Origin: an uncultured Bacteroidales bacterium
GTDB taxonomy: Bacteria > Bacteroidota > Bacteroidia > Bacteroidales > UBA12077
Assembly (NCBI GenBank): GCA_964450375.1
Contig: CAYVEW010000005.1
Coordinates: 1 to 62,802, forward strand
Reading direction: 5' to 3'
DNA: 62,802 nucleotides
Shown: positions 1-59,631 of the stretch, piece after piece
Layout: every line of letters starts with the position of its first letter
Position numbering within the stretch: the first letter of the stretch is position 1
The notes under the pieces: generated by a model
Seen by the model: the letters and a program-made list of their open reading frames with translations, nothing else
Told to the model about the DNA's origin: nothing
Database searches by the model: none
Made by a program: the position numbers and the translations under genes

Positions 1-1077
1 AGAGTTATTAGTAACAAAAATACATTGCCTATTCTTGATAATTTCCTATTTCAGTTAAGTGATAACGAACTGAAAATAACAGCATCGGATCTGGAAACCA
101 CTTTAATTACTAACATTCGTTTAGAAAATGTTACCGACGAAGGTAGTATTGCAATTCCTGCAAGAATTTTAACAGACACATTAAAAGAGTTTCCTGATCA
201 ACCCTTAACGTTTGATATCAACACAGATACATTCGGAGTTGTTATCACAACTGAAAATGGTAAGTATAATGTTGTGGGACAAAACGGTGAAGATTTTCCA
301 CAACTTCCGGTGATTAAGGAAGATCAGAAAACGTCCATTCAATTAGCAGCAGATGTGTTGCTTAGCGGAATTGCAAAAACTTTGTTTGCTACAGCCGACG
401 ATGAATTGCGCCCGGTGATGAACGGTATTTTTATCGAACTGTATTCTGATAATATGACCTTTGTTGCTTCGGATGCACACAAATTAGTTCGTTACAGAAG
501 AATGGATGTGAAAGCTGAAAATGAATCAGCCTTTATTTTACCTAAAAAACCCGCTGGTTTACTAAAAGCGATTCTTCCGAAAGAAGAAAACGAAGTAATG
601 ATTGAGTTCGACGATAAAAATGCATTCTTTACTTTATCAAATTACAAATTAGTTTCCCGATTGGTAGAAGGTAATTATCCTAGCTATAACTCAGTTATTC
701 CAACCAATAACCCAAATAAATTAACCATTGACCGATTAGAGTTGTACAACGCCTTAAAACGTGTTGCCTTGTTCTCAAATCAGGCAAGTAATTTGGTTAA
801 ACTGGAAATTAAAGGAAACCAATTGAATGTTTCGGCACAAGATATTGATTTTTCAATATCGGCAAACGAACGTTTAAATTGCCAGTACGAAGGTGATGAC
901 ATGGAAATTGGATTTAAATCATCCTTTTTAATCGAAATTTTATCAAATATCACATCATCCGATGTATTGGTTGAACTTTCCGATCCTTCGCGTGCCGGAA
1001 TACTATTCCCTGCCGAAAAAGATAACAGCGATGAAGATGTACTGATGCTGCTTATGCCAATGATGATTAATGTATAA
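1..1077 (+). CDS. dnaN: DNA polymerase III beta clamp (5' partial)
   Basis: Frame is open from base 1 (RVISNKNTLPILDNFLF), with ASDLE, ATADDELRP, ASDAHKLV and C-terminal LLMPM motifs. The true start lies upstream of the window. Confidence 0.97.
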   Translation, partial: RVISNKNTLPILDNFLFQLSDNELKITASDLETTLITNIRLENVTDEGSIAIPARILTDTLKEFPDQPLTFDINTDTFGVVITTENGKYNVVGQNGEDFPQLPVIKEDQKTSIQLAADVLLSGIAKTLFATADDELRPVMNGIFIELYSDNMTFVASDAHKLVRYRRMDVKAENESAFILPKKPAGLLKAILPKEENEVMIEFDDKNAFFTLSNYKLVSRLVEGNYPSYNSVIPTNNPNKLTIDRLELYNALKRVALFSNQASNLVKLEIKGNQLNVSAQDIDFSISANERLNCQYEGDDMEIGFKSSFLIEILSNITSSDVLVELSDPSRAGILFPAEKDNSDEDVLMLLMPMMINV

Positions 1078-14925: not shown

Positions 14926-15786
14926 ATGATTTTGAAAATAAAATATCCGATGATGGTCATACTGATGCTTATTCTTATGATAAGTAGAATGACATCAACT
15001 GCTTCGAATGATAAACCAATGGAATTAAAATCGTACGAAGATAGTTTAAAATACTATTTTTCTCAACTGGCAGCAGAACGGAACGATTTGGCGAAGGAAA
15101 ATATCAATGCCAAACTTATCGCCTATTTTACGATTGCTTTAAATACTGACAACTCATTTGATTATAATTTTGATTCGTTAAAAAATGTCGGCATTATTAA
15201 ATCGCCCGACGAAAAACTGCGTATTATAACATGGAATTTGCCATACAACGATCGTACACATAAGTATTTTGGGTTTATACAATACAAAAAGTCGCGTCGC
15301 GAAACCTTAACCTTTCAGTTGAATGATGAATCGGATTTCATCGAAAAACCTGAGTTTGCAGTTTTAGACCATAACAAATGGTACGGTGCCTTGTATTATC
15401 AGATCATCGATAATAAATATCGTGGCACAACTTATTATACATTGCTGGGGATTGATCTACATGATATATTAACCAAGAAGAAAATAATTGAAGTTTTATA
15501 TTTTGATTCCAACGATCAACCTGTATTTGGCAAGACCGTTTTTAAAAACGTTCGCGAATCGGTTACGCGGGTTATTTTCGAATACAGCGCGCAGGCAGAT
15601 ATGGCATTAACATACGATGAAGAAAAAGAAATGATAATTTATGATCATTTATCTCCGCACAGGCCAAGTCTTAAGGGACAATACGAGTTTTACGGTCCTG
15701 ACTTTTCGTACGATGGATTAAAATTCGAACGTGGAATATGGAATTTTTACCCCGATCTGGATGTCAGGAATTATTCTATTGAATAA
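14926..15786 (+). CDS. Conserved Bacteroidetes exported hypothetical protein
   Basis: Signal-peptide-like N-terminus; WYGALYY and YDHLSP...YGPDFSYDG pattern; long ORF with normal composition. Confidence 0.75.
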   Translation: MILKIKYPMMVILMLILMISRMTSTASNDKPMELKSYEDSLKYYFSQLAAERNDLAKENINAKLIAYFTIALNTDNSFDYNFDSLKNVGIIKSPDEKLRIITWNLPYNDRTHKYFGFIQYKKSRRETLTFQLNDESDFIEKPEFAVLDHNKWYGALYYQIIDNKYRGTTYYTLLGIDLHDILTKKKIIEVLYFDSNDQPVFGKTVFKNVRESVTRVIFEYSAQADMALTYDEEKEMIIYDHLSPHRPSLKGQYEFYGPDFSYDGLKFERGIWNFYPDLDVRNYSIE

Positions 15787-15863
15787 ACAACAAAGATGAT
15801 TTTCGTTTCTTACTTGATTTATTATTAGATTAATACTAAATTTAAGAAACATTTTTTACAGCC

Positions 15864-16403
15864 TTGCGATTACAAAAACAACATACACTCGTTTATTTCA
15901 TCGATAATGATGATTCATATATCCGTGATATTCTTTCTACTTTCGAAGAAGTGAATGAATTCAATATAAAGATATTTTCCCGAAGTAAAGATTTCTTTGA
16001 AGAGTTTGAGCAAATGGAGTTTAATAAAAGGAAGATTATTATTGTTTTTGTTTCTACCGAGTTGGAATACGATGAAGAAAATAACCAGGTAAATCCTTTA
16101 ACCGTATTAAGAAAAATTAAACAGCTGGATCCTAACGCAGAAGTTATTTTATATTCCGATGATGATAATATCAATATTGTTTCGTCGGCATTCCACTATG
16201 GAGTGTATACATTTATTAAAAAGAATGAGAATATCGTTTTACGAATCGAGAATAATATCAAAGGAATAATCAGTCAAAAGAACTTTTTATTAAAGCGCGA
16301 AGCCAGCAGGCGAATTACACTTGTTTTTTTGCTATTTATTGCATTAACTGCTGTCAGTTTACTTATTCTGTATTTTTTATTTCCACACTGGTTTTTATCC
16401 TAA
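15864..16403 (+). CDS. Atypical receiver-like domain with C-terminal TM helix
   Basis: REC-like pattern (YFIDNDD, LRKIKQLDPNAEVILYS, YTFIKK) lacking the phosphoacceptor Asp (IVFVSTE); ends in a hydrophobic helix. TTG start is uncertain. Confidence 0.65.
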   Translation: MRLQKQHTLVYFIDNDDSYIRDILSTFEEVNEFNIKIFSRSKDFFEEFEQMEFNKRKIIIVFVSTELEYDEENNQVNPLTVLRKIKQLDPNAEVILYSDDDNINIVSSAFHYGVYTFIKKNENIVLRIENNIKGIISQKNFLLKREASRRITLVFLLFIALTAVSLLILYFLFPHWFLS

Positions 16404-23566: not shown

Positions 23567-23595
23567 AAAAATCCGGGAGTTACCCGGATTTTTTT
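23567..23595. terminator. Bidirectional terminator
   Basis: aaaaatccggg-agtta-cccggattttttt between convergent genes. Confidence 0.85.
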
Positions 23596-25453
23596 AATCT
23601 TGTTTTTCTATATGCTTGCAAATAGTGGCGTACAATTCTTTTATGTTAATAGGTTTTGAAATATAATCGTCGCAACCGGCTTTAAAACTTTTTTCTTTTT
23701 CCGACGACATGGTAAAGGCTGTTTGAACAATAATCGGAATATTCGGATTGATTTGTTTTATTTGCGTAGTAGCTTCTATTCCATCCATTACAGGCATTCT
23801 AATATCCATTAAAATCGCATCAATATCGGGATTCATTTTAAAGAATTTTACTGCATCTTTTCCATTTTCGGCATGTATAATTTCTACGTTTGTTTTTTGC
23901 AAGGATTTCTTTAGAAGTAGAAAGTTAGCTTCATCATCTTCGGCAATTAAAATGGTTTTTCCTGTCCAGTCATAATCTAATTTTGATTTTATATCTAGTT
24001 TATCAAAAGATATTTTAAAGCCAATAACCAAAATATCATCGAGTTGTTTGCGATCTCCTTTCCATTGTTCAAATGTGCGTTCCAGAATATACCTTTGTTC
24101 ATCAAGCGATTTTTCGCAATTTTCAAGGAGCAGGTTTCTAAAATTTGTAGCCAGGAATTTTCTTCCGGATTCGCCGCCAAACTGATCTGAAAAGCCATCG
24201 GAAAAAATATAAATTAAATCGTCTTGTTCAAGTTTAATTTCATGATTTTCAAATGATTCTTTAGCACGCCTATGTATTCCTATGGGCATTCTGTCGGCTT
24301 TGTATTCAATTAATTGGTTATTTCGGATTAAATAGAGTGGGTTATTGGCCCCTGCATATTCAATTACCTTTTTTTTGTGATTAATAATACAAAGAGCTAC
24401 ATCCATTCCATCCCGGCTTTCACCTAAGGAACCTGTTTGCCGCAACGAACTTATAATGTGCATCCGAAGTTCGTTTAGTATTTCATTGGCATGCACATTA
24501 GGATTTTTATTCACTATTTCATTTAAAAAGGTAATTCCCAACATGCTCATTAGCGCACCGGGGACTCCATGTCCGGTGCAGTCTGCTGCAGCAATAAAAA
24601 TTTTTTCGTCGACTTGCTTGGTCCAGTAAAAATCGCCACTAACAATATCGCGGGGTTTATAAAAAATAAAATGCTCCGATAAAAGGTGTTGTATAAATCT
24701 GTTTGGAGGAAGAACAGCAGATTGAATTCGTTTAGCGTAAATAATACTGTCTTCAATTTTTTTCTTTTGTATTTGCACTAAATCGTGCTGCTTTTTTATT
24801 TTGTGCTTTTGTTCGGCAATTTTATCTCCCTGTTTCATGATGAAATTCAGGTCGGTTTCCATCAATTCCTTTTGTTTTGAAATTTCAGTCTTTTCAATAG
24901 CTAAATTGTCTCTTTCTTTCTGGATCTTAGCTCGTTGGTTCTGGATTAGATCACCTTGCTTGATATAAAAATCCATTTCTTTTTCAAGCTCAGCTATTCG
25001 TTTTAAGTTTTCTGCTAATTCTTTTTCGTATTTTTTTTCTTCCGATTTTATTTTCGATATATCATTGGCAAGTAATACGTATCCCAGGTTTTCTTCTTTT
25101 TCGTTTTTTATTTCCGAAATTCGTGCCTGAAAATAGAAGTTATCTACTTTATTGGGTACTGTAAATTCAAACTCCTGGTTAATGGAAGTATCTTTTAATT
25201 TAATAAGAAATCGTTCAAGTTTTCGATGAAAATCATCGCTAATAAAAGCTTTACTATAATGTTTGCCAATTATGGATTTCGGATCAATATCAATCAAATT
25301 ATTCGATGAAGGAAACTGAACATTAACATATTCACCTTCGGGATTTAAAATAAACAAGAAATCACTCAGGGATGAGATGGTAAAAAATATATCTTTCTTA
25401 CTTAATTCGGTCTTGATAAATTCAAGGTCTTTATTTGATCCATCTTTTAGCAT
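23594..25453 (-). CDS. PAS - coiled coil - SpoIIE/PP2C phosphatase - receiver protein
   Basis: PAS-like N-terminus; PP2C motifs VSGDFYW, ADCTGHGVPGA, DGMD, FSDGFSDQFGG and DDILVIG; C-terminal REC (AEDD, MDIRMP, ISKP). Confidence 0.9.
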   Translation of the reverse strand: MLKDGSNKDLEFIKTELSKKDIFFTISSLSDFLFILNPEGEYVNVQFPSSNNLIDIDPKSIIGKHYSKAFISDDFHRKLERFLIKLKDTSINQEFEFTVPNKVDNFYFQARISEIKNEKEENLGYVLLANDISKIKSEEKKYEKELAENLKRIAELEKEMDFYIKQGDLIQNQRAKIQKERDNLAIEKTEISKQKELMETDLNFIMKQGDKIAEQKHKIKKQHDLVQIQKKKIEDSIIYAKRIQSAVLPPNRFIQHLLSEHFIFYKPRDIVSGDFYWTKQVDEKIFIAAADCTGHGVPGALMSMLGITFLNEIVNKNPNVHANEILNELRMHIISSLRQTGSLGESRDGMDVALCIINHKKKVIEYAGANNPLYLIRNNQLIEYKADRMPIGIHRRAKESFENHEIKLEQDDLIYIFSDGFSDQFGGESGRKFLATNFRNLLLENCEKSLDEQRYILERTFEQWKGDRKQLDDILVIGFKISFDKLDIKSKLDYDWTGKTILIAEDDEANFLLLKKSLQKTNVEIIHAENGKDAVKFFKMNPDIDAILMDIRMPVMDGIEATTQIKQINPNIPIIVQTAFTMSSEKEKSFKAGCDDYISKPINIKELYATICKHIEKQD

Positions 25454-25456
25454 AGT

Positions 25457-25825
25457 TTAATTCATTAAAATGTTTTTTACTTTTCGTAAAACGTTATTTA
25501 CATCAATGGGTTTATTTAACAGGCCAACCGCACCTGCATTAATTGCCTTTTCATTTATTCCGTCATCGTTTCTTGCAGTTATAAACAAAACCGGAATGTG
25601 ATTTGTTTCCGGACAATTTTTTATTTCATTCAACAACGAAAAACCATCCTGATCAGGCATCATAATATCCAGCAAAATTAAACCGGGTTTTTCGACCTTT
25701 AATATTTTAAGCGCTTCTTTAGCACTGAAGGCAATGGTTGAATCAATACCTTCCAAATCCAGAATACTCTGTAAAAGAAAATTATTGGTGTTTGAATCGT
25801 CGATTATTAACACTTTCTTATTCAT
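25457..25825 (-). CDS. Single-domain response regulator
   Basis: IIDDS, LLDIMMPDQDG, FITA and LLNKP motifs. Confidence 0.92.
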   Translation of the reverse strand: MNKKVLIIDDSNTNNFLLQSILDLEGIDSTIAFSAKEALKILKVEKPGLILLDIMMPDQDGFSLLNEIKNCPETNHIPVLFITARNDDGINEKAINAGAVGLLNKPIDVNNVLRKVKNILMN

Positions 25826-25836
25826 CACTACAAGAT

Positions 25837-26898
25837 CTATTTTTTATTATTTATGTAATCGAGTAATCGTTTTTTGTTACTTTCAAAACCAATTGCCTGG
25901 CTCACTGTGGTGTAATAATCCGTTGGATCCATCACAAAATCATAAGCATAAAAAGCAATATCTAACCTGGAATTTTCGTAATCAAATAAATCGATGATCC
26001 CTTTAATTTGCTCAGATGTAAAACATTTCTTTGTTTGAATAAGATGTTTTGCAGAATTTAGCTTTGTTGAGTTAAATTTTTCGTTCCGAATTGTGCTTAT
26101 TACTTGATTATACTCACTTTCGCTTACTTTACAGCTGTTGTCGGCGGTTGAGCCTTGCGAACTTAAAAAGTTCATGAATTCACTTCTTACTTTCGGAGTA
26201 CTGAAAACTTGTTTCATTTCGATGTAATTGTCCAAATCGTAAACCGAATTTAAAGCTTCTTTTGCAAAAGAGAGTCGAAAGTATTCTTTATTTAATAGCG
26301 AAGCAATTTTCATTAAATGAGCAGTGGCGAGACAATGATTTCTAACAAAATCAATTGCATTATTATAACGCGCTTCATCATCTTTAATTTCATATATTTT
26401 TTTAACGGCCAGATCAAAACGATGTTCAGGAATTAAGTCGTGGCAGTTTTTGTTTCCGGAATATAACCTGTACGAAGGATATTTATAATCGGGGAATTGA
26501 ATGCCGTTAGTTGTTTCTTCGCTGGTGTCGTTATTTTCCTGGTTTAAGCCTTGGATAAAGTCATGCAATCTGAAAACTACTGAGTAATAAAGGAATGCAT
26601 CATACACATCGTAAAAATTCTCTTTATCTGTTGTGTTAGGATAAGCTATTTTTGCAAACTCATATCGATCGTAATCGTTTTCGAACAATGCTGCCAGCTC
26701 TTTTACCTGTGCGCTCGAAAAACAGTAGTTTGTTGCTATTTGTTTTGCGGTAGTAAGTTTGGTATTTTCGGTAGGCCTGTTTTTTATTTGATTGTATTTC
26801 TGTTGAAATTGCTGATTTGGTAAAGGCTGGGTGCAATTTTGTGCATATACTATTCCTCCCAATGCTGTTAATAGAATAAAAACAACAAGTTTTTTCAT
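25837..26898 (-). CDS. Secreted protein with three DUF4476-like repeats
   Basis: Signal peptide; three units of the type KL..AK......CF.S.Q.K.....F..D..R...AK.AY....D..NY. Confidence 0.78.
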   Translation of the reverse strand: MKKLVVFILLTALGGIVYAQNCTQPLPNQQFQQKYNQIKNRPTENTKLTTAKQIATNYCFSSAQVKELAALFENDYDRYEFAKIAYPNTTDKENFYDVYDAFLYYSVVFRLHDFIQGLNQENNDTSEETTNGIQFPDYKYPSYRLYSGNKNCHDLIPEHRFDLAVKKIYEIKDDEARYNNAIDFVRNHCLATAHLMKIASLLNKEYFRLSFAKEALNSVYDLDNYIEMKQVFSTPKVRSEFMNFLSSQGSTADNSCKVSESEYNQVISTIRNEKFNSTKLNSAKHLIQTKKCFTSEQIKGIIDLFDYENSRLDIAFYAYDFVMDPTDYYTTVSQAIGFESNKKRLLDYINNKK

Positions 26899-26958
26899 AA
26901 GCTCGAATGTTAATTTTGTTGATTAAACTATTTGTAAAAAAACAAATAGCGAGAATTT

Positions 26959-27327
26959 TTATAATTCTTCGTATTCAATATATTTAAATGGGATACCAAT
27001 TATAGATTCAAAGTATTGTCCTGATTCCAATACATCCAGATCGCCTTCTTCGTAAAACCAGTTAACCAGAATATTAGAATTGTTGGGGTTATTCTCCAAT
27101 AAACGAAGCATTTCTAAAATGAATTTAGATGAACTGGTGTTAAAGTATTCTAATTTAATGTCAACACGAATCTCAGAAGCAGTAAATTCTCTTGTCCAGT
27201 CGAGAAGTGGTTTGAAAAATGATGCAGCATCTTCAGGTATCGATCGCCCCTCAATTTTCAGAACACCATTAGCACTTAATGCAACGGAAGGAGTTTTTTC
27301 TGTTTCCTTTATAATTAAATCTTTCAT
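26959..27327 (-). CDS. siaC: SiaC family (DUF1987) phosphoprotein
   Basis: T..TP.V, I.GRSIPE, LEYFNTSSSK (phospho-Thr motif) and VNWFYEE.D.D..E.G motifs. Confidence 0.88.
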   Translation of the reverse strand: MKDLIIKETEKTPSVALSANGVLKIEGRSIPEDAASFFKPLLDWTREFTASEIRVDIKLEYFNTSSSKFILEMLRLLENNPNNSNILVNWFYEEGDLDVLESGQYFESIIGIPFKYIEYEEL

Positions 27328-27534: not shown

Positions 27535-28569
27535 ATGAAAAAAGGCCAAATACTAAAATTTGTAATTATTGTTTTTATAGTTAGTTTGTTAATTGTTATT
27601 GTATTAGGCACAAAGTTTTACAAACGAGTTTACGAGGGGAACAGCACAAAAGAAAATTACTTATATATTCCTACAGGATCTGCATTTAACGATGTACTTA
27701 AAATTATTGAACGGGATAGTATATTGGAAAATATTGATTCGTTCAGGTGGCTGGCTTTAAAGAAAAACTATCATAATCATGTGTATGCCGGAAAATATCG
27801 CATAGATAGCAACATGAATAATAATGATTTGATTAATATGCTGCGTTCGGGTTATCAGGATCCGGTTAAGTTAATCTTTAACAGTGTTAGAACCAGAGAA
27901 CAACTGGCAGGTAAAATCTCGGAGCAAATCGAAGCCGATTCCATTTCTTTACTTAATGTTTTTAATAATGATTCCATTGTAAAAGCTTATGGCTTAAAAC
28001 CGGAAACCTTTACGGCGATATTCTTACCGAATACTTATGAATTTTGGTGGAATACCACAGCCGCAGGATTCGTTAATCGAATGCACAAAGAGTACGAGCG
28101 ATTCTGGAACCAGGAACGTTTAGCGAAGGCAAAAAAACTTAACCTGACACCCGAGGAAGTTGTTACGCTGGCTTCTATTGTGGATGAAGAAACACTGTAT
28201 AACGACGAAATGGCAAAAGTTGCCGGAGTTTACATTAACCGTTTGCGAAAGCGAATGCATTTGCAAGCCGATCCTACTTTAAAGTTTGCTTTAGGCGATT
28301 TTACCATTAAACGGGTGTTAAATATTCACAAACAAATTGATTCGCCTTATAATACTTACAAAAGATACGGATTGCCACCCGGGCCCATTTCAATTCCTTC
28401 CATTGCTGCAATTGATGCAGTATTGAATTATGAACAACATAGCTATTTATATTTCTGTGCTAAACCAGATTTTTCGGGCTATCATAACTTTGCAAAAACC
28501 CTTTCGCAACATAACATTAATGCCCGCGAATATCAGCGAGCATTAAATAAGGAAAGGATCTGGAGATAA
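27535..28569 (+). CDS. mltG: Endolytic transglycosylase
   Basis: N-terminal TM anchor, LASIVDEET, LQADPT, SPYNTY...GLPPGPI and YLYFCAK motifs; TAATTTTG -7 element at 27497. Confidence 0.96.
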   Translation: MKKGQILKFVIIVFIVSLLIVIVLGTKFYKRVYEGNSTKENYLYIPTGSAFNDVLKIIERDSILENIDSFRWLALKKNYHNHVYAGKYRIDSNMNNNDLINMLRSGYQDPVKLIFNSVRTREQLAGKISEQIEADSISLLNVFNNDSIVKAYGLKPETFTAIFLPNTYEFWWNTTAAGFVNRMHKEYERFWNQERLAKAKKLNLTPEEVVTLASIVDEETLYNDEMAKVAGVYINRLRKRMHLQADPTLKFALGDFTIKRVLNIHKQIDSPYNTYKRYGLPPGPISIPSIAAIDAVLNYEQHSYLYFCAKPDFSGYHNFAKTLSQHNINAREYQRALNKERIWR

Positions 28570-28570
28570 T

Positions 28571-29743
28571 TTAAGGTAATTTAAAAATGATAGGGAAAGT
28601 GAGCACTACATCAGCAGGCTCTCCATCTTTTTTACCCGGTTTCCATTTAGGGGAACTATAAACCAGTCGTAATGCTTCCTGATCGAGCGATGGGTGCACT
28701 CCGCGAGCAACTTTAGCATCTTTAATGTAGCCATTCTTAGCTACTGTAAACTGTACATAAACAGTTCCTTTAATTCCTTTTGTTAAGGCTTCTTGAGGAT
28801 AGTTTATATTGTTATTTAAGTATTTTTTAAAATCTTTGATTTCACCAATGAATTTAGGCATATCATCAACCACAAAATAGATTTCTTCAGCATTGTTTTG
28901 GTTTAAATCCTTATTTTCTTCTTGGGATGTGGGAGTTATAACTTCTTCTTCAGGTTCTGTTCGGTAGAATTTATCTACAAAGGATAAAAGAACAACAGAT
29001 TCGGATGTTACTGATGAATTGTTTTTAACGATTATATGATATACAGCAGTATTGCTTATATCGAATAAGTTGTATGATATTTCATTATTTATGTTGATCG
29101 ATTTAGGCTTTAATCTTTTTTCAGATTTACTTTCAATGAGTTGTAATTCAAATTGGCCGGGTGTATTTTGAAAAACTGACAACGAATACGTGTTGTTTTT
29201 AGATAATACAACGGAGTATCTGGCATCTTTATGGGGTTCGATCTTATTAGTAAAATCCTTTAAATATGTATCCTTGCTTACATTTAACAGTTTTTCAAGT
29301 TTTGGATTTTGCACAATGGTTTCGTGTTGTTCTAATTTTTTGGCTGTGCTTAATAAAATGGTGCTCGAAATAGCTTTATCTGATGTGTTCTTAACATTTA
29401 AGATGTATTTTTGCTCCTTATTGCTTTTTGTGGAGAAATTAAAGATTCCAACTGTTTCGTCCTTTGTGCTGTAAATAGTATATCCATAATTATTAAATAA
29501 GGTAAGCCGAAACTGTTTATAATCTTTCATATTTGCAAACCATTCATAGATTGTTCGTTTCTCTAGCTCAATAATAAACTGGGTTTCTTCGCCGGGTTTT
29601 AGCTTAAAAGCAAAGTCTTTTATATAGGTGTTTTTACCGGCAGCCTTTAGCAATTCTTTTAAATCGGGGTGTTCTCCCGGAGTAAAAGAGTAAGTGGCAT
29701 GTACATAAAAAACAGTTATTAGGATTAAAATATATTTTTTCAT
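28571..29743 (-). CDS. TonB C-terminal domain protein with two N-terminal tandem repeat domains
   Basis: C-terminal VDDMPKF..YPQEAL..GIKGTVYVQFTV..LDQEALRLV...PKWKPG; internal duplication TYIKDF / TYLKDF. Confidence 0.85.
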   Translation of the reverse strand: MKKYILILITVFYVHATYSFTPGEHPDLKELLKAAGKNTYIKDFAFKLKPGEETQFIIELEKRTIYEWFANMKDYKQFRLTLFNNYGYTIYSTKDETVGIFNFSTKSNKEQKYILNVKNTSDKAISSTILLSTAKKLEQHETIVQNPKLEKLLNVSKDTYLKDFTNKIEPHKDARYSVVLSKNNTYSLSVFQNTPGQFELQLIESKSEKRLKPKSININNEISYNLFDISNTAVYHIIVKNNSSVTSESVVLLSFVDKFYRTEPEEEVITPTSQEENKDLNQNNAEEIYFVVDDMPKFIGEIKDFKKYLNNNINYPQEALTKGIKGTVYVQFTVAKNGYIKDAKVARGVHPSLDQEALRLVYSSPKWKPGKKDGEPADVVLTFPIIFKLP

Positions 29744-29754
29744 GATTTTAAGTT

Positions 29755-30690
29755 TTAGTGAATAATAATTTTGCTTCCATCCGCGGAGATTTGGCAGTTG
29801 AACTGTAATTGAATTTTATCCAGAATATAATCAATTTCTAAGTTGGTGTACTGAGCGCTTATTTTTTGTGTACTCAGCTTTTTATTTTCAACTTGCATTG
29901 GAATGTTAAAATGTTTTGAGATGTCTTCGATTACTGAATATAAAGGCGTCTGGTCAAATTTCAACACTCCGGTATGCCAGGCCAGATAATTCTTATTGGT
30001 TTGTTGCTCAACGGCCACAAAATTTGCAGTTGGGTTATATGTAGCTTTATCTCCCTTCTGCAAATTTAATTGCGTGGATGGCGGTAAATCCGGATTGTAT
30101 AAATTGATTTCACCATCTTCAAGATTTGCAACTAACTGACCAGGTGTATTTGTATTAATCGTAAAATTGGCTTTTTTACCCGTAAATTGAATTCCGTTCG
30201 ATACAATAGTTACTTTCTTATCCTGATTCATATTGAAATAGGCTTCTCCTTCGAACTGAATTTCTGAATTTCGTTTTAAATGCATTGGGATTTTTATGGT
30301 ACTTCCTGAGTTTAAATATACTGTAAACTGCTCGTTTACATGAAGTGTAACTTTTTCTCCCTGCTCAACCGTTATTTCGGCATACCGAACGGGTTTTGTA
30401 AATGATCGATATTCAATGATTGCGAACAGGAGTATTGTTGTTAAAATAACCGTATATGCTGGTTTTAAAATCGGTTTAAAGTTTAAATAAGGTAATAATG
30501 TTCTTAAATTTTGAATAAAACGATTGGTAGTATTTAGTTTTTTGTTGATCTGTTGGTACGATTTCAGTATATCAGAATCATCAGCTTTGAAATTAAGCTC
30601 AGAAAACAAAAGATTGTTCGATTCCATTAGTTGATCCAAATCAAACTGATCTTTTTTATTTTGTTTCAATGTATTTCTCAAATTTTTCAT
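29755..30690 (-). CDS. FecR family anti-sigma factor
   Basis: TM helix, VYLNSGSTI, FEGEAYF and C-terminal AW..G.L.F..TPL..V...I. Start moved to ATG 30690 because a promoter motif overlaps ATG 30720. Confidence 0.88.
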   Translation of the reverse strand: MKNLRNTLKQNKKDQFDLDQLMESNNLLFSELNFKADDSDILKSYQQINKKLNTTNRFIQNLRTLLPYLNFKPILKPAYTVILTTILLFAIIEYRSFTKPVRYAEITVEQGEKVTLHVNEQFTVYLNSGSTIKIPMHLKRNSEIQFEGEAYFNMNQDKKVTIVSNGIQFTGKKANFTINTNTPGQLVANLEDGEINLYNPDLPPSTQLNLQKGDKATYNPTANFVAVEQQTNKNYLAWHTGVLKFDQTPLYSVIEDISKHFNIPMQVENKKLSTQKISAQYTNLEIDYILDKIQLQFNCQISADGSKIIIH

Positions 30691-30701
30691 TGTACTTATA
30701 T

Positions 30702-30727
30702 AACGTTTCTTAAAATTCATAACCCTA
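30702..30727 (-). promoter_or_regulatory. Putative ECF promoter TAGGG-N17-CGTT upstream of fecR
   Basis: Same spacing as the site upstream of the sigma gene (31296-31321). Confidence 0.6.
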
Positions 30728-31279
30728 AAATTTTAAGTGATCTTTAAAAGGTTCTAAATAAACCCGCATTTTTTTATAAGCGATTGTAAGTTGATTTTCA
30801 ACTGTTTTTGTAGAGATATTAAGATATTGCGCAATTTCTTTAACACTTAAGCCTTCCTGTTTTGCAAGCCGAAATATTTCTTTCGCTTTTTTGGGCAGCT
30901 GGTCAATAGCCGATTCCAGTATGGCTTTTATCTTGTAATGATCGGTGGGCTCCGCTTTATCGTTTGTTAGAATTTCAGGGGTTACAGCATTTTCATACTT
31001 TTTGCGGGTATTTATTTTTCTGATTTCATCAATAATTTCGTTGCGTGTATAGGTGAAAAGAAGCTTTCCGATTTCATCATCAGAATTCAGGTTTTTAGAA
31101 TTTTTCCAAATCTTAATAAAACTATTTTGGACTGATTCTTCGGCAATACTGCTGGAGTTACAAAAGTTACAGGCAAATCGATAGAGTGGTTTATAATATT
31201 TAAAAAACAGCGAATCGAAAGCAAGTTTGTTTCCTTGCCTGATTTTCTGAATTAAAATATGATCGGGAGTATGCTGCAT
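30725..31279 (-). CDS. ECF RNA polymerase sigma-70 factor (FecI-like)
   Basis: AFDSLFFKYY..L..FA, VQNSFIKIW, AIDQLP...IF.L...EGLS.KEIA..LNIS.KTVENQL. Confidence 0.95.
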   Translation of the reverse strand: MQHTPDHILIQKIRQGNKLAFDSLFFKYYKPLYRFACNFCNSSSIAEESVQNSFIKIWKNSKNLNSDDEIGKLLFTYTRNEIIDEIRKINTRKKYENAVTPEILTNDKAEPTDHYKIKAILESAIDQLPKKAKEIFRLAKQEGLSVKEIAQYLNISTKTVENQLTIAYKKMRVYLEPFKDHLKF

Positions 31280-31295
31280 TAATTTTTTAGTGTAA

Positions 31296-31321
31296 AACGA
31301 ATCTCAAGTTATATCCCCCTA
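31296..31321 (-). promoter_or_regulatory. Putative autoregulatory ECF promoter TAGGG-N17-CGTT
   Basis: Minus strand tagggggatataacttgagattcgtt, aligning position for position with the fecR site. Confidence 0.6.
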
Positions 31322-31327
31322 AAAAAC

Positions 31328-36919: not shown

Positions 36920-38476
36920 TTAAATATTATTATTGATTTTACGTTGCACTTTCTCTTTTATTATTTCCTGTATTTTACGATTTTCGATTTTGCTTTCGAG
37001 CCACGAAACAATATCGAAGTAGATAAACGACCTGCGCTCGTAGAATTTATCATTTAAAGGAATTAGCTGCTCTCGTAAATCTTTGAAAGCATCTGTTAAC
37101 TGATCTCGCGTAATAGAGCTCAGTTTTCTTAAAAATTTCATAATGATTTTCTGAAACAGGTGCAAATCATTTTTCTTTATCAGGAATCGATAAGTTGAAC
37201 GGATATAATAATCGACTAAATCGATATTGCCCAGTTCGTAATGACTGATCAGGTTCAGAATGCGCGCAAAGCCATGAATGTCGGAACGTAAATCAACATC
37301 TTTCATATTAATGATTTTATTCAACCAAAAAACTACCTGCCGGTAATTATCGTCGCCAAAGTACATGCAGGCAAATTTGTAATAAAAAATGGTGATGTAA
37401 TTTGTATCGAGTAGATGTTCAAAATCTTCCAGGCTATCGGCTATTTCAGGAATTATTTTTGATCCTTCGGTAAATTCGCCCAACATAAAATAGCGGTTTA
37501 TTTTATGTGTAGCCGAATATTTAAATAACAATAATCGAATGTTTTCGGTTAGTTTAAAATCAGTATTGTTTTTTATGGCATCCAACTTTTGAATGGTTAT
37601 AATAAACTCATCGTATTTATGCAATTTATTTTGTGCCACCAGCAAATTATTGATCGCACGAATGTACATTTCCAGTTTGGGAACAATTACATCGGGCTGA
37701 TCATCAAATAAGCCAAGCCATTTTTTTGCATATTCATAGCCACGCTCAAAATCCTGAATAAAAAAGTAATATCCTACAAACGAATTGTATAAATACATTT
37801 TTTCGTCGAACGAAAGCTTATCTTCCTGAAAAACCGGAAGTGTTGAATATAAAAAGCTGTTAACCAGCTCAAAGTCTTTGTGGTTACGTAAAAAGCCGAT
37901 TTTCAGATAGAAGGAGTACAGTTTAATGGTTAAGTTTGAAAAGGTGCTGATGTTATTAATTTTTTCGTTGATATGATCTGAAGCTTTAATTAAAGAGCTT
38001 ACTTTATCTTCAATATTTGTACGGATGTATTTTGTAACCAATCTTTTTTCGAATTCGGTTATTTCCAGTAAAAGCAGGTTTTTGTCGTGCTTCTCGGCAG
38101 TTTGCTTTGCTTTCTCGAGCATCTTCACACACTGGTCGTACATGCATTTATTGTAAAGGATAGTGGAATGATCTAATAGCTCGCGTATTTGTATATCAAT
38201 ATCCTCGTCGGGATTAAAACTGCGCAGGCTTTTAAGAACCTGCCGGAATAAATGTGCCTTTAAATTCGATATTTGTTGTGCTTTGATGCCAGGTTCTTTT
38301 TCAATTATTTTCGACTCGTTGTATACTTTTTGTTTGTCGATTAAGTCGAAAAGCTTAATAAACTTAGCATCTTCGAATGCTTTTTGTTTCGATGTATATA
38401 CTTTAAAATATCTTTTCTCTGCTTTGGTAAGCGATTTAATTAACTGAAATAAGGGGTCGTTATTATTGTTAGCCAT
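36920..38476 (-). CDS. Conserved Bacteroidetes helical-repeat (TPR-like) hypothetical protein
   Basis: N-terminal LFQLIKSLTK.EKRYFK motif; predicted all-helical with a TPR-like pattern; C-terminal F.YFDIVSW.ESK. Confidence 0.75.
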   Translation of the reverse strand: MANNNNDPLFQLIKSLTKAEKRYFKVYTSKQKAFEDAKFIKLFDLIDKQKVYNESKIIEKEPGIKAQQISNLKAHLFRQVLKSLRSFNPDEDIDIQIRELLDHSTILYNKCMYDQCVKMLEKAKQTAEKHDKNLLLLEITEFEKRLVTKYIRTNIEDKVSSLIKASDHINEKINNISTFSNLTIKLYSFYLKIGFLRNHKDFELVNSFLYSTLPVFQEDKLSFDEKMYLYNSFVGYYFFIQDFERGYEYAKKWLGLFDDQPDVIVPKLEMYIRAINNLLVAQNKLHKYDEFIITIQKLDAIKNNTDFKLTENIRLLLFKYSATHKINRYFMLGEFTEGSKIIPEIADSLEDFEHLLDTNYITIFYYKFACMYFGDDNYRQVVFWLNKIINMKDVDLRSDIHGFARILNLISHYELGNIDLVDYYIRSTYRFLIKKNDLHLFQKIIMKFLRKLSSITRDQLTDAFKDLREQLIPLNDKFYERRSFIYFDIVSWLESKIENRKIQEIIKEKVQRKINNNI

Positions 38477-38688: not shown

Positions 38689-39216
38689 ATGAGTTTTTCT
38701 AAAGTATCTACCTTAACATCAGGCGTTTTAGCTATTGCTAACAATGCTATGATTAATAATAAAGAAAATATTGTTTTGGACAGCGTGAATTCGTATCCGG
38801 GAAACGTGGAAAATATTCTGGTTATCGATAAGAATTTTAATGATATAGCTAATTACGATGATTTAATTGAATCGATTTATCAAATGGGTTTTCGGATTAT
38901 TATATCGGATACTTTTACCAATATTTTTACCGCCAAAGCAATAAGTTACGGGATTTTAACTATTGAAGTAACACGTGCTTTTATTGATAAGCTGGTTGAT
39001 TTAAGCAAATCATCGTCGATTAAATTATTTGTTGATGTACAGGGGCAGGAGGTGATGATTATTAATTCGGGCGAAAAAGAATTTTTTGAGTTAAGCGATT
39101 ATTGCAAGGAAAATCTTGATAGTGGCAGGGATGATGTGGAGAATTTGTATTCGGTATGGGATGATATGCATAATTATTATAAAAAGGAAGAAGTATTCGA
39201 TTACGCTATAGAATAA
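38689..39216 (+). CDS. Degenerate LeuD-like (aconitase swivel domain) protein
   Basis: ILVIDKNF, GFRIIISDTFTNIF, VDVQGQEV and FELSDYCKENLDSGRDDV align by eye to LeuD; the DTDxIIP and GSSREHA motifs are absent. Confidence 0.75.
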   Translation: MSFSKVSTLTSGVLAIANNAMINNKENIVLDSVNSYPGNVENILVIDKNFNDIANYDDLIESIYQMGFRIIISDTFTNIFTAKAISYGILTIEVTRAFIDKLVDLSKSSSIKLFVDVQGQEVMIINSGEKEFFELSDYCKENLDSGRDDVENLYSVWDDMHNYYKKEEVFDYAIE

Positions 39217-39264
39217 CATAAACGTTTTTTTTGATTTTCATTATTGTAGTTTTTGCGAACAATG

Positions 39265-39296
39265 GAGTCGGCTAATTTTAGCCGGCTTCTTTTTTT
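39265..39296. terminator. Terminator between convergent genes
   Basis: gtcggcta...tagccggc stem followed by a T tract. Confidence 0.65.
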
Positions 39297-39915
39297 AAAA
39301 AGTAATGACCAGAGCTAATTGCGGGACTTGTGTTTTAGGATCCACCCGAACATCAACATTTAACGAAGTTATTTTTGGTAATTTCTGGTTTAAAATTCCC
39401 TGGTTAAAATCGTGCAACGAACGGTAAAGGAAAGTTTTCGAGAGCACATGATAGGTTAGGGTACCCGTTAAAAATACAATGATGGATGCGGTTAAATAAC
39501 CGCTTTCTTCTTCGGTGTAGATACTTTCATCAATGGTTGAAACGCCTGTGCTGCTATCTTTTTTACCCGGATCGTAAGTATAGTGTTTGTAAGCCAGCAG
39601 CGGAGCAATAACCCACATTTGAGCCAAACCTGCTAATCGGGTGTATTTATATAAGTTAATATTTTGTGTAGCGATGGAATCAGAAAGCAAATAAGGCTTC
39701 ACATTCCCACCTAACATACCAACCCGTTCCCAGTTTTCTCCCTGGTTGGTTGAGAACTCTTGTTTAACCAAAAACAGCGGTGTTAATAAAATCCATTTGG
39801 TATTGTTTCGATAGTAAATGGAGTCAATCGACTTTTCTTTAATTGTAATCTGAGAATAAGTTGATTGCAAGAAAAAAGCAGATAATATAGATATCAAAAA
39901 AAGTTTCTTCACCAT
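39295..39915 (-). CDS. Hypothetical exported/membrane protein
   Basis: Signal peptide (…QSTYS-Q) plus two further hydrophobic segments. Start moved to ATG 39915. Confidence 0.65.
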   Translation of the reverse strand: MVKKLFLISILSAFFLQSTYSQITIKEKSIDSIYYRNNTKWILLTPLFLVKQEFSTNQGENWERVGMLGGNVKPYLLSDSIATQNINLYKYTRLAGLAQMWVIAPLLAYKHYTYDPGKKDSSTGVSTIDESIYTEEESGYLTASIIVFLTGTLTYHVLSKTFLYRSLHDFNQGILNQKLPKITSLNVDVRVDPKTQVPQLALVITF

Positions 39916-40004
39916 GTTCAATTTATTAAAAGTTAAAGGTATAAAAAGCATTTAGATTGACTATACCATTTCTCTTAATTTATGACGAAATTTCTTTGCA
40001 AATA

Positions 40005-57062: not shown

Positions 57063-57629
57063 ATGAATGCACAAAAAGAAAATAAAAGTTTAAGGTGGTT
57101 CATTTCATCCGAATATCGAAACATAGTAAAGTATGTAAAAAGATATTTGAATGAGAAATACTATGAGGTAAGCGCCGAAGATGTTGTGCAGGATGTTGCC
57201 GTTAACCTATTTTCGAAATTAGATTTAGATGAGCAATTGGAAAATATAGCTGCTTATGTTTACCGATCTGTTAAAAATAAAATAACGGATGTTCGAAGGA
57301 AGAAAAACAATGAAGTCCCTTTTGAACGTTTTACTGATGATGAAGGAAATGAATTTATATTAAACAAAGCAGCCGTTTCGTCGGAATTGATTTTTAAAGA
57401 AATTGATGACTCGAAATTTTATAACACAATAAACACTGCATTAAGCAAATTAAATCCGAATCAGCAAATGGTATTTGTAGCTACCGAATTCGAAGGATAC
57501 ACATTTGAAGAATTATCGGACGAATTAGATATACCCATTGGGACACTCTTGTCGTGGAAACACCGTGGAGTTAAAAGATTAAAAGAACTCATCAGGCCTG
57601 ATGATTTATACAGAGAAACAATTGAATAA
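57063..57629 (+). CDS. ECF RNA polymerase sigma factor
   Basis: AEDVVQDV, AAYVYRSVKNKITD and L..L...QQMVFVATEFEGYTFEELS....IPIGTLLS motifs. Confidence 0.92.
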   Translation: MNAQKENKSLRWFISSEYRNIVKYVKRYLNEKYYEVSAEDVVQDVAVNLFSKLDLDEQLENIAAYVYRSVKNKITDVRRKKNNEVPFERFTDDEGNEFILNKAAVSSELIFKEIDDSKFYNTINTALSKLNPNQQMVFVATEFEGYTFEELSDELDIPIGTLLSWKHRGVKRLKELIRPDDLYRETIE

Positions 57630-58331: not shown

Positions 58332-59120
58332 TTGTTTATTTTTATAAAAAAGACTTTTGGTGTGATCAAGTGTTTATATAAAAAACTAATTCCGGAAAAA
58401 ACCAGAATTGAGCTTATCTACTTAAAAAACAGGATTAAAGCATGGTTTCTGAAAGGGGATAAGTATTACTGCAATTGTTGTAATAAAAGTTTTCGTCAAT
58501 TTCTTCCTAAAGGTAATGTGCCGCGCGATCATGCGATGTGTCCAAACTGCATGTCGTTAGAACGTACAAGACTGTTAATGGAGTATTTAAAGAATGAAAC
58601 TGGAGTTTTTACAAATAGACTGAAAGTATTGCATTTTGCTCCTGAAAAATGCTTGTTCGATCAGTTAATCAAACAAAATATAGAATACATCGATGGCGAC
58701 TTAAACCCTTTGTTTGCAAGAAATGTAATCGATATAACAAACATCCCGTATCCTGATAATTATTTTGATCTAATTATTTGTTCGCACGTATTAGGGCATG
58801 TTTCAGATGAAAAAAAGGCATTAGCTGAACTAAAGCGTGTTCTTTCGGGCAGTGGATTTGCTATTATCATGTCGCTTATTGATTTTAATAGTGCTGAAAC
58901 TTACGAGAATCCCGCAATAGTAACAAAAGCAGAAAAGCTGGAACATTATGGAGAGCCTGATTTGGAAAGGTTATACGGTAGAGATTTCCCGAATCGACTC
59001 GAAGATTCAGGTTTTCGGGTAGAAATAATTGATTACCGAAACAAGTTAGAGCCTGGCTTAAAAGCTAAGCTTAATACAGGCGATGGAAGCCGGGAAGTCA
59101 TTTTTAGATGTGCTAAATAA
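58332..59120 (+). CDS. Class I SAM-dependent methyltransferase with N-terminal Cys4 (zinc-ribbon-like) motif
   Basis: YCNCC...CPNC.SLER.RLL, LHFAPE, DITNIPY.DN.FD.IICSHVL motifs. Start is uncertain. Confidence 0.85.
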   Translation: MFIFIKKTFGVIKCLYKKLIPEKTRIELIYLKNRIKAWFLKGDKYYCNCCNKSFRQFLPKGNVPRDHAMCPNCMSLERTRLLMEYLKNETGVFTNRLKVLHFAPEKCLFDQLIKQNIEYIDGDLNPLFARNVIDITNIPYPDNYFDLIICSHVLGHVSDEKKALAELKRVLSGSGFAIIMSLIDFNSAETYENPAIVTKAEKLEHYGEPDLERLYGRDFPNRLEDSGFRVEIIDYRNKLEPGLKAKLNTGDGSREVIFRCAK

Positions 59121-59127
59121 TAATAAT

Positions 59128-59631
59128 ATGGCAAAGATTTATTTTTCAGAAAATCAAAAAGTTAACTTGGGGTGGAAATGGATTTTTTTTATTTCTCTTT
59201 ATGTGGCTTTAATTTGGGCTTTGTTGGAAAATACAAATCCTGATTCTAATTCTAATCCTGATCTGCAAGCAGTTATAGCCATCTCTTTTAGTATGGTGGC
59301 TATTGTTATTTTTAATGTGTTAACTGTTTTAATGCATCTGGAAACCACCATCGACGAAAATAAAATATCCGTGCGTTTCAAACCCTTTCATCGAAAACCT
59401 AAATCTTTTCGTTGGGATGAGATCGAAGATTTTTATATTCGTTATTATAAACCTGTAAGAGATTATGGTTCTTATGGAATCCAAAGAAATATTAAACACG
59501 GACTGGCTTATATTGTGTCTGGAAAATACGGACTACAGTTATTACTTAAAAGTGGTAAGAAAGTATTAATAGGTACACAAAAAATCAAAGAATTAGAAAG
59601 AATAGTTGATTTAATTAAAACAAAACGATAG
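59128..59631 (+). CDS. Hypothetical membrane protein (two TM helices plus PH-like C-terminus)
   Basis: F.E.Q N-terminus, two hydrophobic helices, YKPVRDYGSYGI and G..GLQL.LK.GKK.LIGTQK. Start moved to ATG 59128. Confidence 0.75.
   Translation: MAKIYFSENQKVNLGWKWIFFISLYVALIWALLENTNPDSNSNPDLQAVIAISFSMVAIVIFNVLTVLMHLETTIDENKISVRFKPFHRKPKSFRWDEIEDFYIRYYKPVRDYGSYGIQRNIKHGLAYIVSGKYGLQLLLKSGKKVLIGTQKIKELERIVDLIKTKR

Follow-up and report, generated by a model that had tools for sequence, protein, structure and literature searches.

Cell-surface signalling is held to require an outer-membrane transducer that is pulled by TonB. To our knowledge, VreA of Pseudomonas is the only exception that has been studied, and its mechanism is still unexplained after 15 years. 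In the PUMA3 system of P. aeruginosa, VreA is a periplasmic, signal-peptide-bearing and receptor-like protein that combines an STN domain with a TolA/TonB-C-like domain and is encoded together with VreI and VreR; its authors proposed that one of the two domains touches VreR and the other an unknown outer-membrane partner (PMC2729926, PMC4971064). Here we analyse a receptor-less locus in a stretch of 62,802 nt from an uncultured Bacteroidales bacterium of sediment (contig CAYVEW010000005.1, positions 1-62,802, forward strand; hereafter the window). The genes for an extracytoplasmic function (ECF) sigma factor, an anti-sigma factor resembling FecR and a protein with a TonB C-terminal domain, hereafter gene 3, together with the candidate promoters P1 and P2, make up a self-contained three-component envelope signalling module, P1-sigma-P2-fecR-gene 3, which is closed and mobile. 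No description of this module was found in the searched literature, which did not cover the subgroup listing of the ECF classification.

How the anti-sigma factor is controlled has been described for several canonical systems. Both subdomains of PupR's C-terminal cell-surface signalling domain (CCSSD) contact the signalling domain of the transducer (PMC7186176), the contact with the signalling domain shields the anti-sigma factor from proteolysis before the signal in the case of FoxR (PMC11637429), and for FecR the cleavage cascade begins with the TonB-driven release of a C-terminal fragment (10.1101/2025.01.06.631622). Based on the analyses below we propose, with a probability of roughly 0.55, that gene 3 serves FecR as its input partner in the periplasm, i.e. 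as a sensor or adaptor that would act by binding and competition and not by force.

Gene order and inheritance of the triplet

The three genes are closely packed on the minus strand of the window, and gene 3 converges with mltG (YceG) so that the two stop codons lie 1 nt apart (Table 1). The original prediction, an earlier note on this DNA, had described an ECF sigma-FecR-TonB-C triplet that lacks a TonB-dependent receptor and ends head-on against mltG, and the positions of the open reading frames (ORFs) and the domain scans bear out both statements. No TonB-dependent receptor, ExbB or ExbD is encoded among the 33 scanned ORFs of the window, and none was found within about 8 kb in related loci. 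The window sequence matches DNA runs only, which derive from metagenomes of marine sediment and of sludge.

The 15 species-representative genomes with the sandwich domain of gene 3 (described below), each of them an uncultured Bacteroidales metagenome-assembled genome, all show one and the same arrangement: murB pointing away, a glycosyltransferase gene, sigma, fecR and gene 3 in one direction, mltG against them, and siaC again in the direction of the triplet. The four other loci bearing the gene 3 domain all have sigma-fecR-gene 3, contigs from JGI and ENA found by exact-protein look-up keep the same order, and a metagenome scan seeded with MltG yielded 11 further loci in which the triplet is complete. 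The scan also turned up five loci of this synteny block that are devoid of all three genes, with the stop codons of the glycosyltransferase gene and mltG 0-40 nt apart. These empty loci hold no pseudogene remnants, and not one locus keeping a subset of the triplet was found in the MltG-seeded scan. In a single-protein neighbour-joining tree of MltG, four of the five empty loci (L070 was left out) each fall inside a different triplet-bearing subclade, suggesting at least four independent losses, or gains, of the whole module.

An unrelated neighbourhood, locus L140, surrounds the most divergent member of the FecR subfamily (P0297, 38% identity): the flanking genes are pilin, T2SSE and BACON on one side, Bac_transf and Poly_export on the other. 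The triplet of this locus comprises the sigma factor, FecR and a 273-aa signal peptide-sandwich-TonB_C protein that is 41% identical to gene 3 (E 5e-58). Both P1- and P2-type sites are present in this independent context, and a clear hairpin with a T-run terminator follows directly after gene 3. The nearest outgroup FecRs (23-28% identity) have a SusC-like receptor and SusD encoded downstream, and the SusC of the closest one (L142) carries an STN domain. The secreted sandwich-TonB_C protein occupies the place of the STN-bearing transducer of these sister systems, and sigma, fecR and gene 3 have stayed together as a unit through inheritance, relocation and loss.

The original prediction had also taken the triplet for a variant of cell-surface signalling and had suggested a synteny survey of sigma-fecR-tonB triplets. 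In this survey no related locus examined has a TonB-dependent receptor at the position of gene 3, and the linkage is conserved; being kept in two contexts and lost only as a whole unit, the triplet does represent a genuine and conserved variant. The original prediction further proposed that the TonB-C fusion connects FecR with receptors encoded in trans or monitors the state of the envelope; both are candidate roles of gene 3. A simple deletion of a TonB-dependent receptor was considered and rejected on the basis of the conserved linkage, the independent context of L140 and the STN-SusC outgroups. The 26 loci of TonB_C-only relatives (L020-L045) have neither sigma nor FecR nearby, and the adjacency is thus specific to the sandwich-bearing family. 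The stand-alone sandwich proteins P0161 and P0163 are not adjacent to sigma or FecR genes either.

Domains and family of the third protein

Gene 3 encodes 390 amino acids, and its sole Pfam match is TonB_C (PF03544) at residues 312-389, which is complete (E 1.1e-18, profile positions 2-79 of 79). Two tandem beta-rich repeats of about 120 aa, followed by an acidic linker and a TonB C-terminal domain, had been read from the translation alone, and all of these elements are recovered. The repeats (residues 24-136 and 145-258) share 28% identity with a pairwise E of 9e-12. The AlphaFold model, calculated with a 41-sequence alignment, has a mean predicted local distance difference test score (pLDDT) of 82.7 and predicts an N-terminal helix, two copies of a helix with an eight-strand beta-sandwich, a disordered acidic linker and an alpha/beta C-terminal domain. 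In Foldseek searches the model's C-terminal domain matches the TonB C-terminal domain in the FoxA complex 6i97_D (template modelling score 0.83, root mean square deviation 2.2 Å), while the sandwiches match generic tandem beta-sandwiches such as the collagen-binding s3a-s3b tandem of ColG, the N-terminal domain of DeCLIC and CUB pairs. Against Pfam the sandwich repeat gives only weak GOLD/EMP24 (6 of the 41 members, best 2e-5) and CBM49 matches, and a profile search of the PDB returned nothing significant for it. Neither an M56 domain (Pfam) nor a polyproline run is present in gene 3.

Two forms occur in the gene 3 family, a two-repeat form of 383-398 aa and a commoner one-repeat form of 262-300 aa, which aligns to repeat 2 only. 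The number of repeats varies between sister loci, as seen for L005 (391 aa) and L016 (274 aa) and for L001/L008 and L013/L057. Because the one-repeat forms match repeat 2 and sisters differ in repeat number, the conserved core is, as judged from the alignments, a signal peptide, one sandwich, the linker and TonB_C, the last of these being the best-conserved part of the protein. Repeat 1 is an old, separate paralogue of repeat 2 (23-30% identity) that has apparently been lost repeatedly. One family member, P0007, is near-identical in its linker and part of its C-terminal region to P0002, the close relative of the window's gene 3, and resembles P0011/P0012 in the remainder; it could be the product of recombination or of a chimeric metagenome assembly.

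In 36 of the 41 family members the N-terminus consists of M(K/R)K, a short hydrophobic core and a small-x-small|Q motif, with the glutamine at position 22 in most of them; gene 3 of the window departs slightly from this cleavage motif (…VHATYS/FT…). Sequence rules thus predict a type I (Sec) cleavable signal peptide of the Bacteroidetes kind, and gene 3 is accordingly predicted to be a free periplasmic protein and not an anchored TonB-like fusion. The N-terminal hydrophobic segment noticed in the original prediction is present, and the same rules make it a cleavable Sec signal peptide and not a membrane anchor. With the signal peptide in place of the anchor, gene 3 should be unable to couple to ExbBD.

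In the true TonBs of related Bacteroidales (P0069, P0070; 222 aa), a stub in the cytoplasm is followed by a 20-residue membrane anchor and then by a polyproline run, ahead of the TonB C-terminal domain. The C-terminal domain of gene 3 is 48-49% identical to that of these canonical proteins, and the likeness to Bacteroidales TonBs includes its YP motif and the (I/V)xxVEEMPxF segment ahead of the domain. Gene 3 differs from them in having no N-terminal anchor, no polyproline spacer and no linkage to ExbBD, and carries the beta-sandwiches and an acidic linker of about 25 aa instead. Databases label relatives of gene 3 as 'energy transducer TonB' or 'TonB family protein', and together with the full-length TonB_C match this would fit a functional TonB paralogue whose adjacency to sigma and FecR is incidental; otherwise the locus might be a decayed polysaccharide utilization locus that has lost SusC/SusD. 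We regard either explanation as highly improbable. Gene 3 as a true TonB was rejected on the grounds of a cleavable 21-aa signal peptide in place of the anchor and the lack of a polyproline region, true Bacteroidales TonBs having both anchor and polyproline, and ExbB/ExbD were not found nearby. The strict linkage in two contexts, the whole-unit losses and the absence of pseudogene remnants argue against incidental adjacency and decay alike.

With the single sandwich domain as query, an exhaustive profile search returned only 160 cluster representatives among 1.84 billion. The matches make up four groups: members of the gene 3 family, secreted stand-alone proteins of one or two domains, weak matches to PPC (PF04151) repeats of large surface proteins, and BlaR1/M56 metalloproteases. 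In the metalloproteases, the extracytoplasmic C-terminal part is a sandwich-linker-TonB_C cassette, with which residues 142-388 of gene 3 are collinear (P0162, 35% identity over 247 residues, E 1e-44; P0205, E 3e-41), and the M56 genes of both P0162 and P0205 directly follow and overlap a gene for a BlaI/MecI-type repressor. In BlaR1 systems the position of the cassette is that of the sensor domain. A second kind of signalling device carries the cassette of gene 3 on its sensor side. For B. thetaiotaomicron, TonB_C proteins that bear additional domains, among them M56, have been noted as uncharacterised (PMC10350073), and the module offers an initial clue to what the many uncharacterised Bacteroidota proteins of the 'extra-domain TonB' kind described there may do. 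As a tentative and rather doubtful extension, the cassette might be a general Bacteroidota 'TonB-box reader', i.e. a TonB C-terminal domain that, whether free or tethered, signals the exposure of TonB boxes and is shared by FecR-type anti-sigma factors and BlaR1-type proteases. If this were true, ligand occupancy or stress of outer-membrane transporters without a signalling domain of their own could be relayed to transcription without force transduction.

Anti-sigma factor, promoters and possible mechanism

The anti-sigma factor matches Pfam FecR_C (1e-10) and FecR (2.9e-4) and contains a single hydrophobic segment at about residues 84-104. Residues 105-321 (ORF numbering) can be aligned over their full length to canonical Bacteroidetes FecR and to PDB 4M0N/4M0H. 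A Foldseek search with the AlphaFold model finds 4M0N (E 9e-18) and the PupR CCSSD 6OVK_R (E 5.5e-14), and the last ~70 residues of the model superpose on secretin N0/STN domains at 1.7-2.3 Å. According to the model, FecR keeps the complete PupR-like periplasmic architecture with an all-beta and an STN subdomain. The cytoplasmic N-terminal region is shorter than in canonical FecRs and does not have the motif that is usual in them, and the confidence of the model is low there. The profile search with FecR orthologs delineates a discrete subfamily at 334 bits or more, below which there is a gap down to 114 bits. Translation of FecR most likely begins with the ATG at 30690 and not with the ATG at 30720, because the latter sits in the conserved P2 spacer and most orthologs begin at the equivalent of 30690. 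N-terminal extensions, which are probably mis-called, are found in the FecR entries P0100, P0101, P0103, P0104, P0111 and P0114.

A complete PupR-like CCSSD including the STN subdomain would also suit a FecR that signals via an STN-bearing TonB-dependent transducer encoded in trans, with gene 3 as an accessory that sits on the TonB box of this transducer and tunes or insulates it. The canonical TonB_C of gene 3 is consistent with such a role, and our view of this genome is limited to 62.8 kb. This arrangement seems unlikely to us, as the nearest outgroups always have an adjacent transducer, the triplet, with promoters and a terminator of its own, behaves as a closed unit both when it moves and when it is lost, and no TonB-dependent transducer gene is conserved near any locus.

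The sigma factor belongs to the Bacteroidetes FecI-like type and passes the curated cut-off of TIGR02985 'Sig70_bacteroi1', a Bacteroidetes-expanded ECF family (133.6 bits, cut-off 126.4). A motif of the form TTAGGGG-N16-CGT(T/C) is shared before the sigma gene by all loci, with the CGT about 20 nt before the ATG. The P1 motif is kept in 16 of 16 aligned loci and scores 29.9 bits with a position weight matrix (PWM); in all loci P2 (31.5 bits) is kept where sigma and fecR adjoin, about 15 nt ahead of the conserved FecR start. The window has no strong PWM sites other than P1 and P2. Pattern and PWM scans for further sigma targets in ~435 kb, comprising the window and ~370 kb of clade flanks that reached ~8 kb in related loci, again returned P1 and P2 only; for this wide scan the PWM was limited to the -35 and -10 cores. 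The core PWM has no match in the empty loci, the canonical FecR loci or the BlaR loci. A recurring match to the promoter pattern inside murB was dismissed as a coding coincidence, arising from a WGG(V/I)ENL motif. From the two-block shape of the motif, its duplication and its co-occurrence with the sigma gene we infer that the TTAGGGG-N16-CGTT-type motif is the recognition site of this sigma factor. As one motif is shared by P1 and P2, the three-gene module is probably autoregulated.

P2 places gene 3 under a sigma-type promoter of the module itself, and no other such promoter was found in the 435 kb. Gene 3 might then be a product of signalling, namely a sigma-induced periplasmic TonB-C decoy that occupies TonB boxes and throttles or modulates TonB-dependent uptake under stress, while FecR senses the stress alone or via another partner. 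The TonB_C domain, as the best-conserved part of gene 3 with 48-49% identity to genuine TonBs, would be suited to this task, and Howard et al. 2001 reportedly found TonB-dependent transport of E. coli to be inhibited by C-terminal fragments of TonB located in the periplasm. We consider the decoy possible but doubtful. The cassette is the sensor-side part of BlaR1/M56 transducers, which argues for an input role, and FecR retains the partner-binding CCSSD with no other partner encoded nearby. Furthermore, the STN-SusC that follows fecR in canonical Bacteroidetes systems is sensor and output at the same time, so that dependence on sigma does not discriminate between the two roles.

Several observations weigh against gene 3 as the input partner of FecR. 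No STN domain is present in gene 3 (the Pfam scan finds TonB_C only and the model shows beta-sandwiches), and STN is the known partner of the FecR C-terminal domain. The mirror-tree comparison of FecR with gene 3 gives a partial r of 0.41, which looks significant against permutation but is no higher than the values of unrelated neighbour pairs (0.61 for glycosyltransferase-murB, 0.59 for sigma-mltG); the contact between FecR and gene 3 is one that we infer. Transcription of gene 3 from the sigma-type P2, which with P1 forms the sole sites in ~435 kb, could mark gene 3 as an output and not an input. Finally, the four presence/absence events rest on one neighbour-joining tree.

In the input role that we favour for gene 3, the protein would at rest sit on the periplasmic domain of FecR and block site-1 proteolysis. 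A ligand, for which an exposed TonB-box-like beta-strand of an outer-membrane protein would be the likeliest candidate, would take the TonB_C or sandwich domain, whereupon FecR would be exposed, cleaved and degraded and the sigma factor set free. Free sigma would fire P1 and P2 and thereby provide new sigma factor, anti-sigma factor and sensor, which would reset the system. Signalling would proceed by binding and competition and not by pulling, because an anchorless gene 3 cannot transmit ExbBD force.

Genomic surroundings and comparison with known systems

The coordinates of the module and of neighbouring features are collected in Table 1.

Table 1. Positions of module components and neighbouring genes in the window.
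Feature	Position	Strand	Description
ECF sigma factor	30725-31279	-	184 aa, Bacteroidetes FecI-like type; Sigma70_r2, Sigma70_r4_2, Sigma70_ECF; TIGR02985
FecR-like anti-sigma factor	29755-30690 (ORF to 30720)	-	single-pass, 311 aa from conserved start; FecR, FecR_C, ortholog alignment
Gene 3	28571-29743	-	390 aa
P1, predicted ECF-type promoter	31292-31322	-	5' of sigma; TTAGGGGG-N15-CGTT; CGT 20 nt ahead of ATG
P2, predicted second ECF-type promoter	30698-30728	-	before fecR-gene 3; TTAGGG-N17-CGTT; spans sigma stop codon
Gene 3, predicted signal peptide	29687-29743	-	~residues 1-19 (~19-21 aa); MKK and short hydrophobic core; helix, low pLDDT at 19-22
Gene 3, beta-sandwich repeat 1	29336-29674	-	residues 24-136; absent from many relatives
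Gene 3, beta-sandwich repeat 2	28970-29311	-	residues 145-258; conserved core domain, PPC/GOLD-like fold (alignment, model)
Gene 3, acidic disordered linker	28877-28969	-	residues 259-289; pLDDT <50 at 261-285
Gene 3, TonB C-terminal domain	28574-28876	-	residues 290-390; Pfam TonB_C, Foldseek
Terminator-like hairpin	28517-28546	-	weak T tail; 25 nt past gene 3 stop, within convergent mltG 3' end
mltG (YceG)	27535-28569	+	convergent with gene 3
Partner-switch-like cluster	23594-27327	-	adjoins mltG
SiaC	26959-27327	-	partner-switch-like cluster
DUF4476 protein	25837-26898	-	partner-switch-like cluster
Response regulator	25457-25828	-	partner-switch-like cluster
Response-regulator-SpoIIE phosphatase	23594-25453	-	partner-switch-like cluster
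dnaN	25-1077	+	DNA polymerase III beta clamp
Second ECF-type sigma gene	57063-57629	+	Sigma70_r2 and r4_2
Two overlapping ORFs	58332-59631		after second ECF sigma gene
Hybrid histidine kinase	59743-61977		5TMR-LYT domain

A partner-switch-like gene cluster adjoins mltG on its far side from the module. In other bacteria, stand-alone homologs of the sandwich domain lie in a conserved cluster of the order (SpoIIE)-DUF6272-SiaC-TerB/ABC fusion-unknown protein of 303-361 aa-sandwich protein (L049-L051, L137); the SpoIIE gene is present in L049/L051 and would fall past the end of L137. The recurrent closeness of the sandwich domain to SiaC/SpoIIE genes may be a coincidence. After the module in L140, same-strand genes encode Bac_transf (an initiating sugar transferase) and a Wza-like polysaccharide exporter (L140 8921-11363), and in the clade of the window a GT4 glycosyltransferase gene and murB precede the module. 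Envelope glycans are the common theme of the two neighbourhoods. In front of these neighbour genes the scans returned no promoter of the module type.

Further away, dnaN stands first in the window, over whose length the cumulative GC skew climbs almost monotonically, and the replication origin may for these reasons be close to the left end. A second ECF-type sigma gene is followed by two overlapping ORFs and a hybrid histidine kinase gene (Table 1). Sizeable ORFs of 518, 286, 179, 175 and 218 aa have no Pfam match at 1e-5 (36920-38476 on the minus strand, 14926-16403 on the plus strand, and 38689-39951).

With the BlaR1/M56-TonB_C proteins, e.g. TonB1/TonB10 of B. thetaiotaomicron (PMC10350073), the module shares a homologous cassette that is collinear with gene 3 and is joined, by fusion there and in an operon here, to a proteolysis-based transmembrane signalling device. 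In these proteins the cassette is fused to an M56 zinc protease (HExxH) that acts on BlaI, whereas here it is a secreted protein in its own right, with an anti-sigma factor encoded beside it.

The likeness to canonical cell-surface signalling (FecIRA; PupI-PupR-PupB; sigma-FecR-SusC/SusD) comprises the sigma family TIGR02985, the topology of the anti-sigma factor with the fold of its periplasmic CCSSD (4M0N, 6OVK), and the third gene directly after fecR, as in the nearest outgroups. In contrast to these systems, the module is without a TonB-dependent transducer, an STN partner domain, SusD and a transported substrate. Its third component would be unable to receive force from ExbBD-TonB, and the cytoplasmic N-terminal region of its FecR is shorter and divergent.

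By our comparison, the closest functional precedent is VreA-VreI-VreR of P. aeruginosa PUMA3. Compared by description, both systems join a FecI/FecR-type pair and a secreted receptor component that is not a beta-barrel in one three-gene operon, and the C-terminal domain is TolA/TonB-like in VreA as in gene 3. They differ in the N-terminal part, which is STN in VreA and one or two PPC/GOLD-like beta-sandwiches in gene 3, and in the C-terminal domain, which was modelled on TolA at 9% identity for VreA and is a clear Pfam TonB_C here. The order is vreA-vreI-vreR there and sigma-fecR-gene 3 here, in another phylum, and vreAIR is driven by PhoB whereas the present module has two promoters with the same motif. 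The module would represent a second, independent and much cleaner receptor-less case, in which a free protein of the periplasm carries a bona fide TonB C-terminal domain, and it offers a set of partners, the FecR periplasmic domain, gene 3 and TonB-box peptides, with which to ask how a TonB C-terminal domain serves as a signal input.

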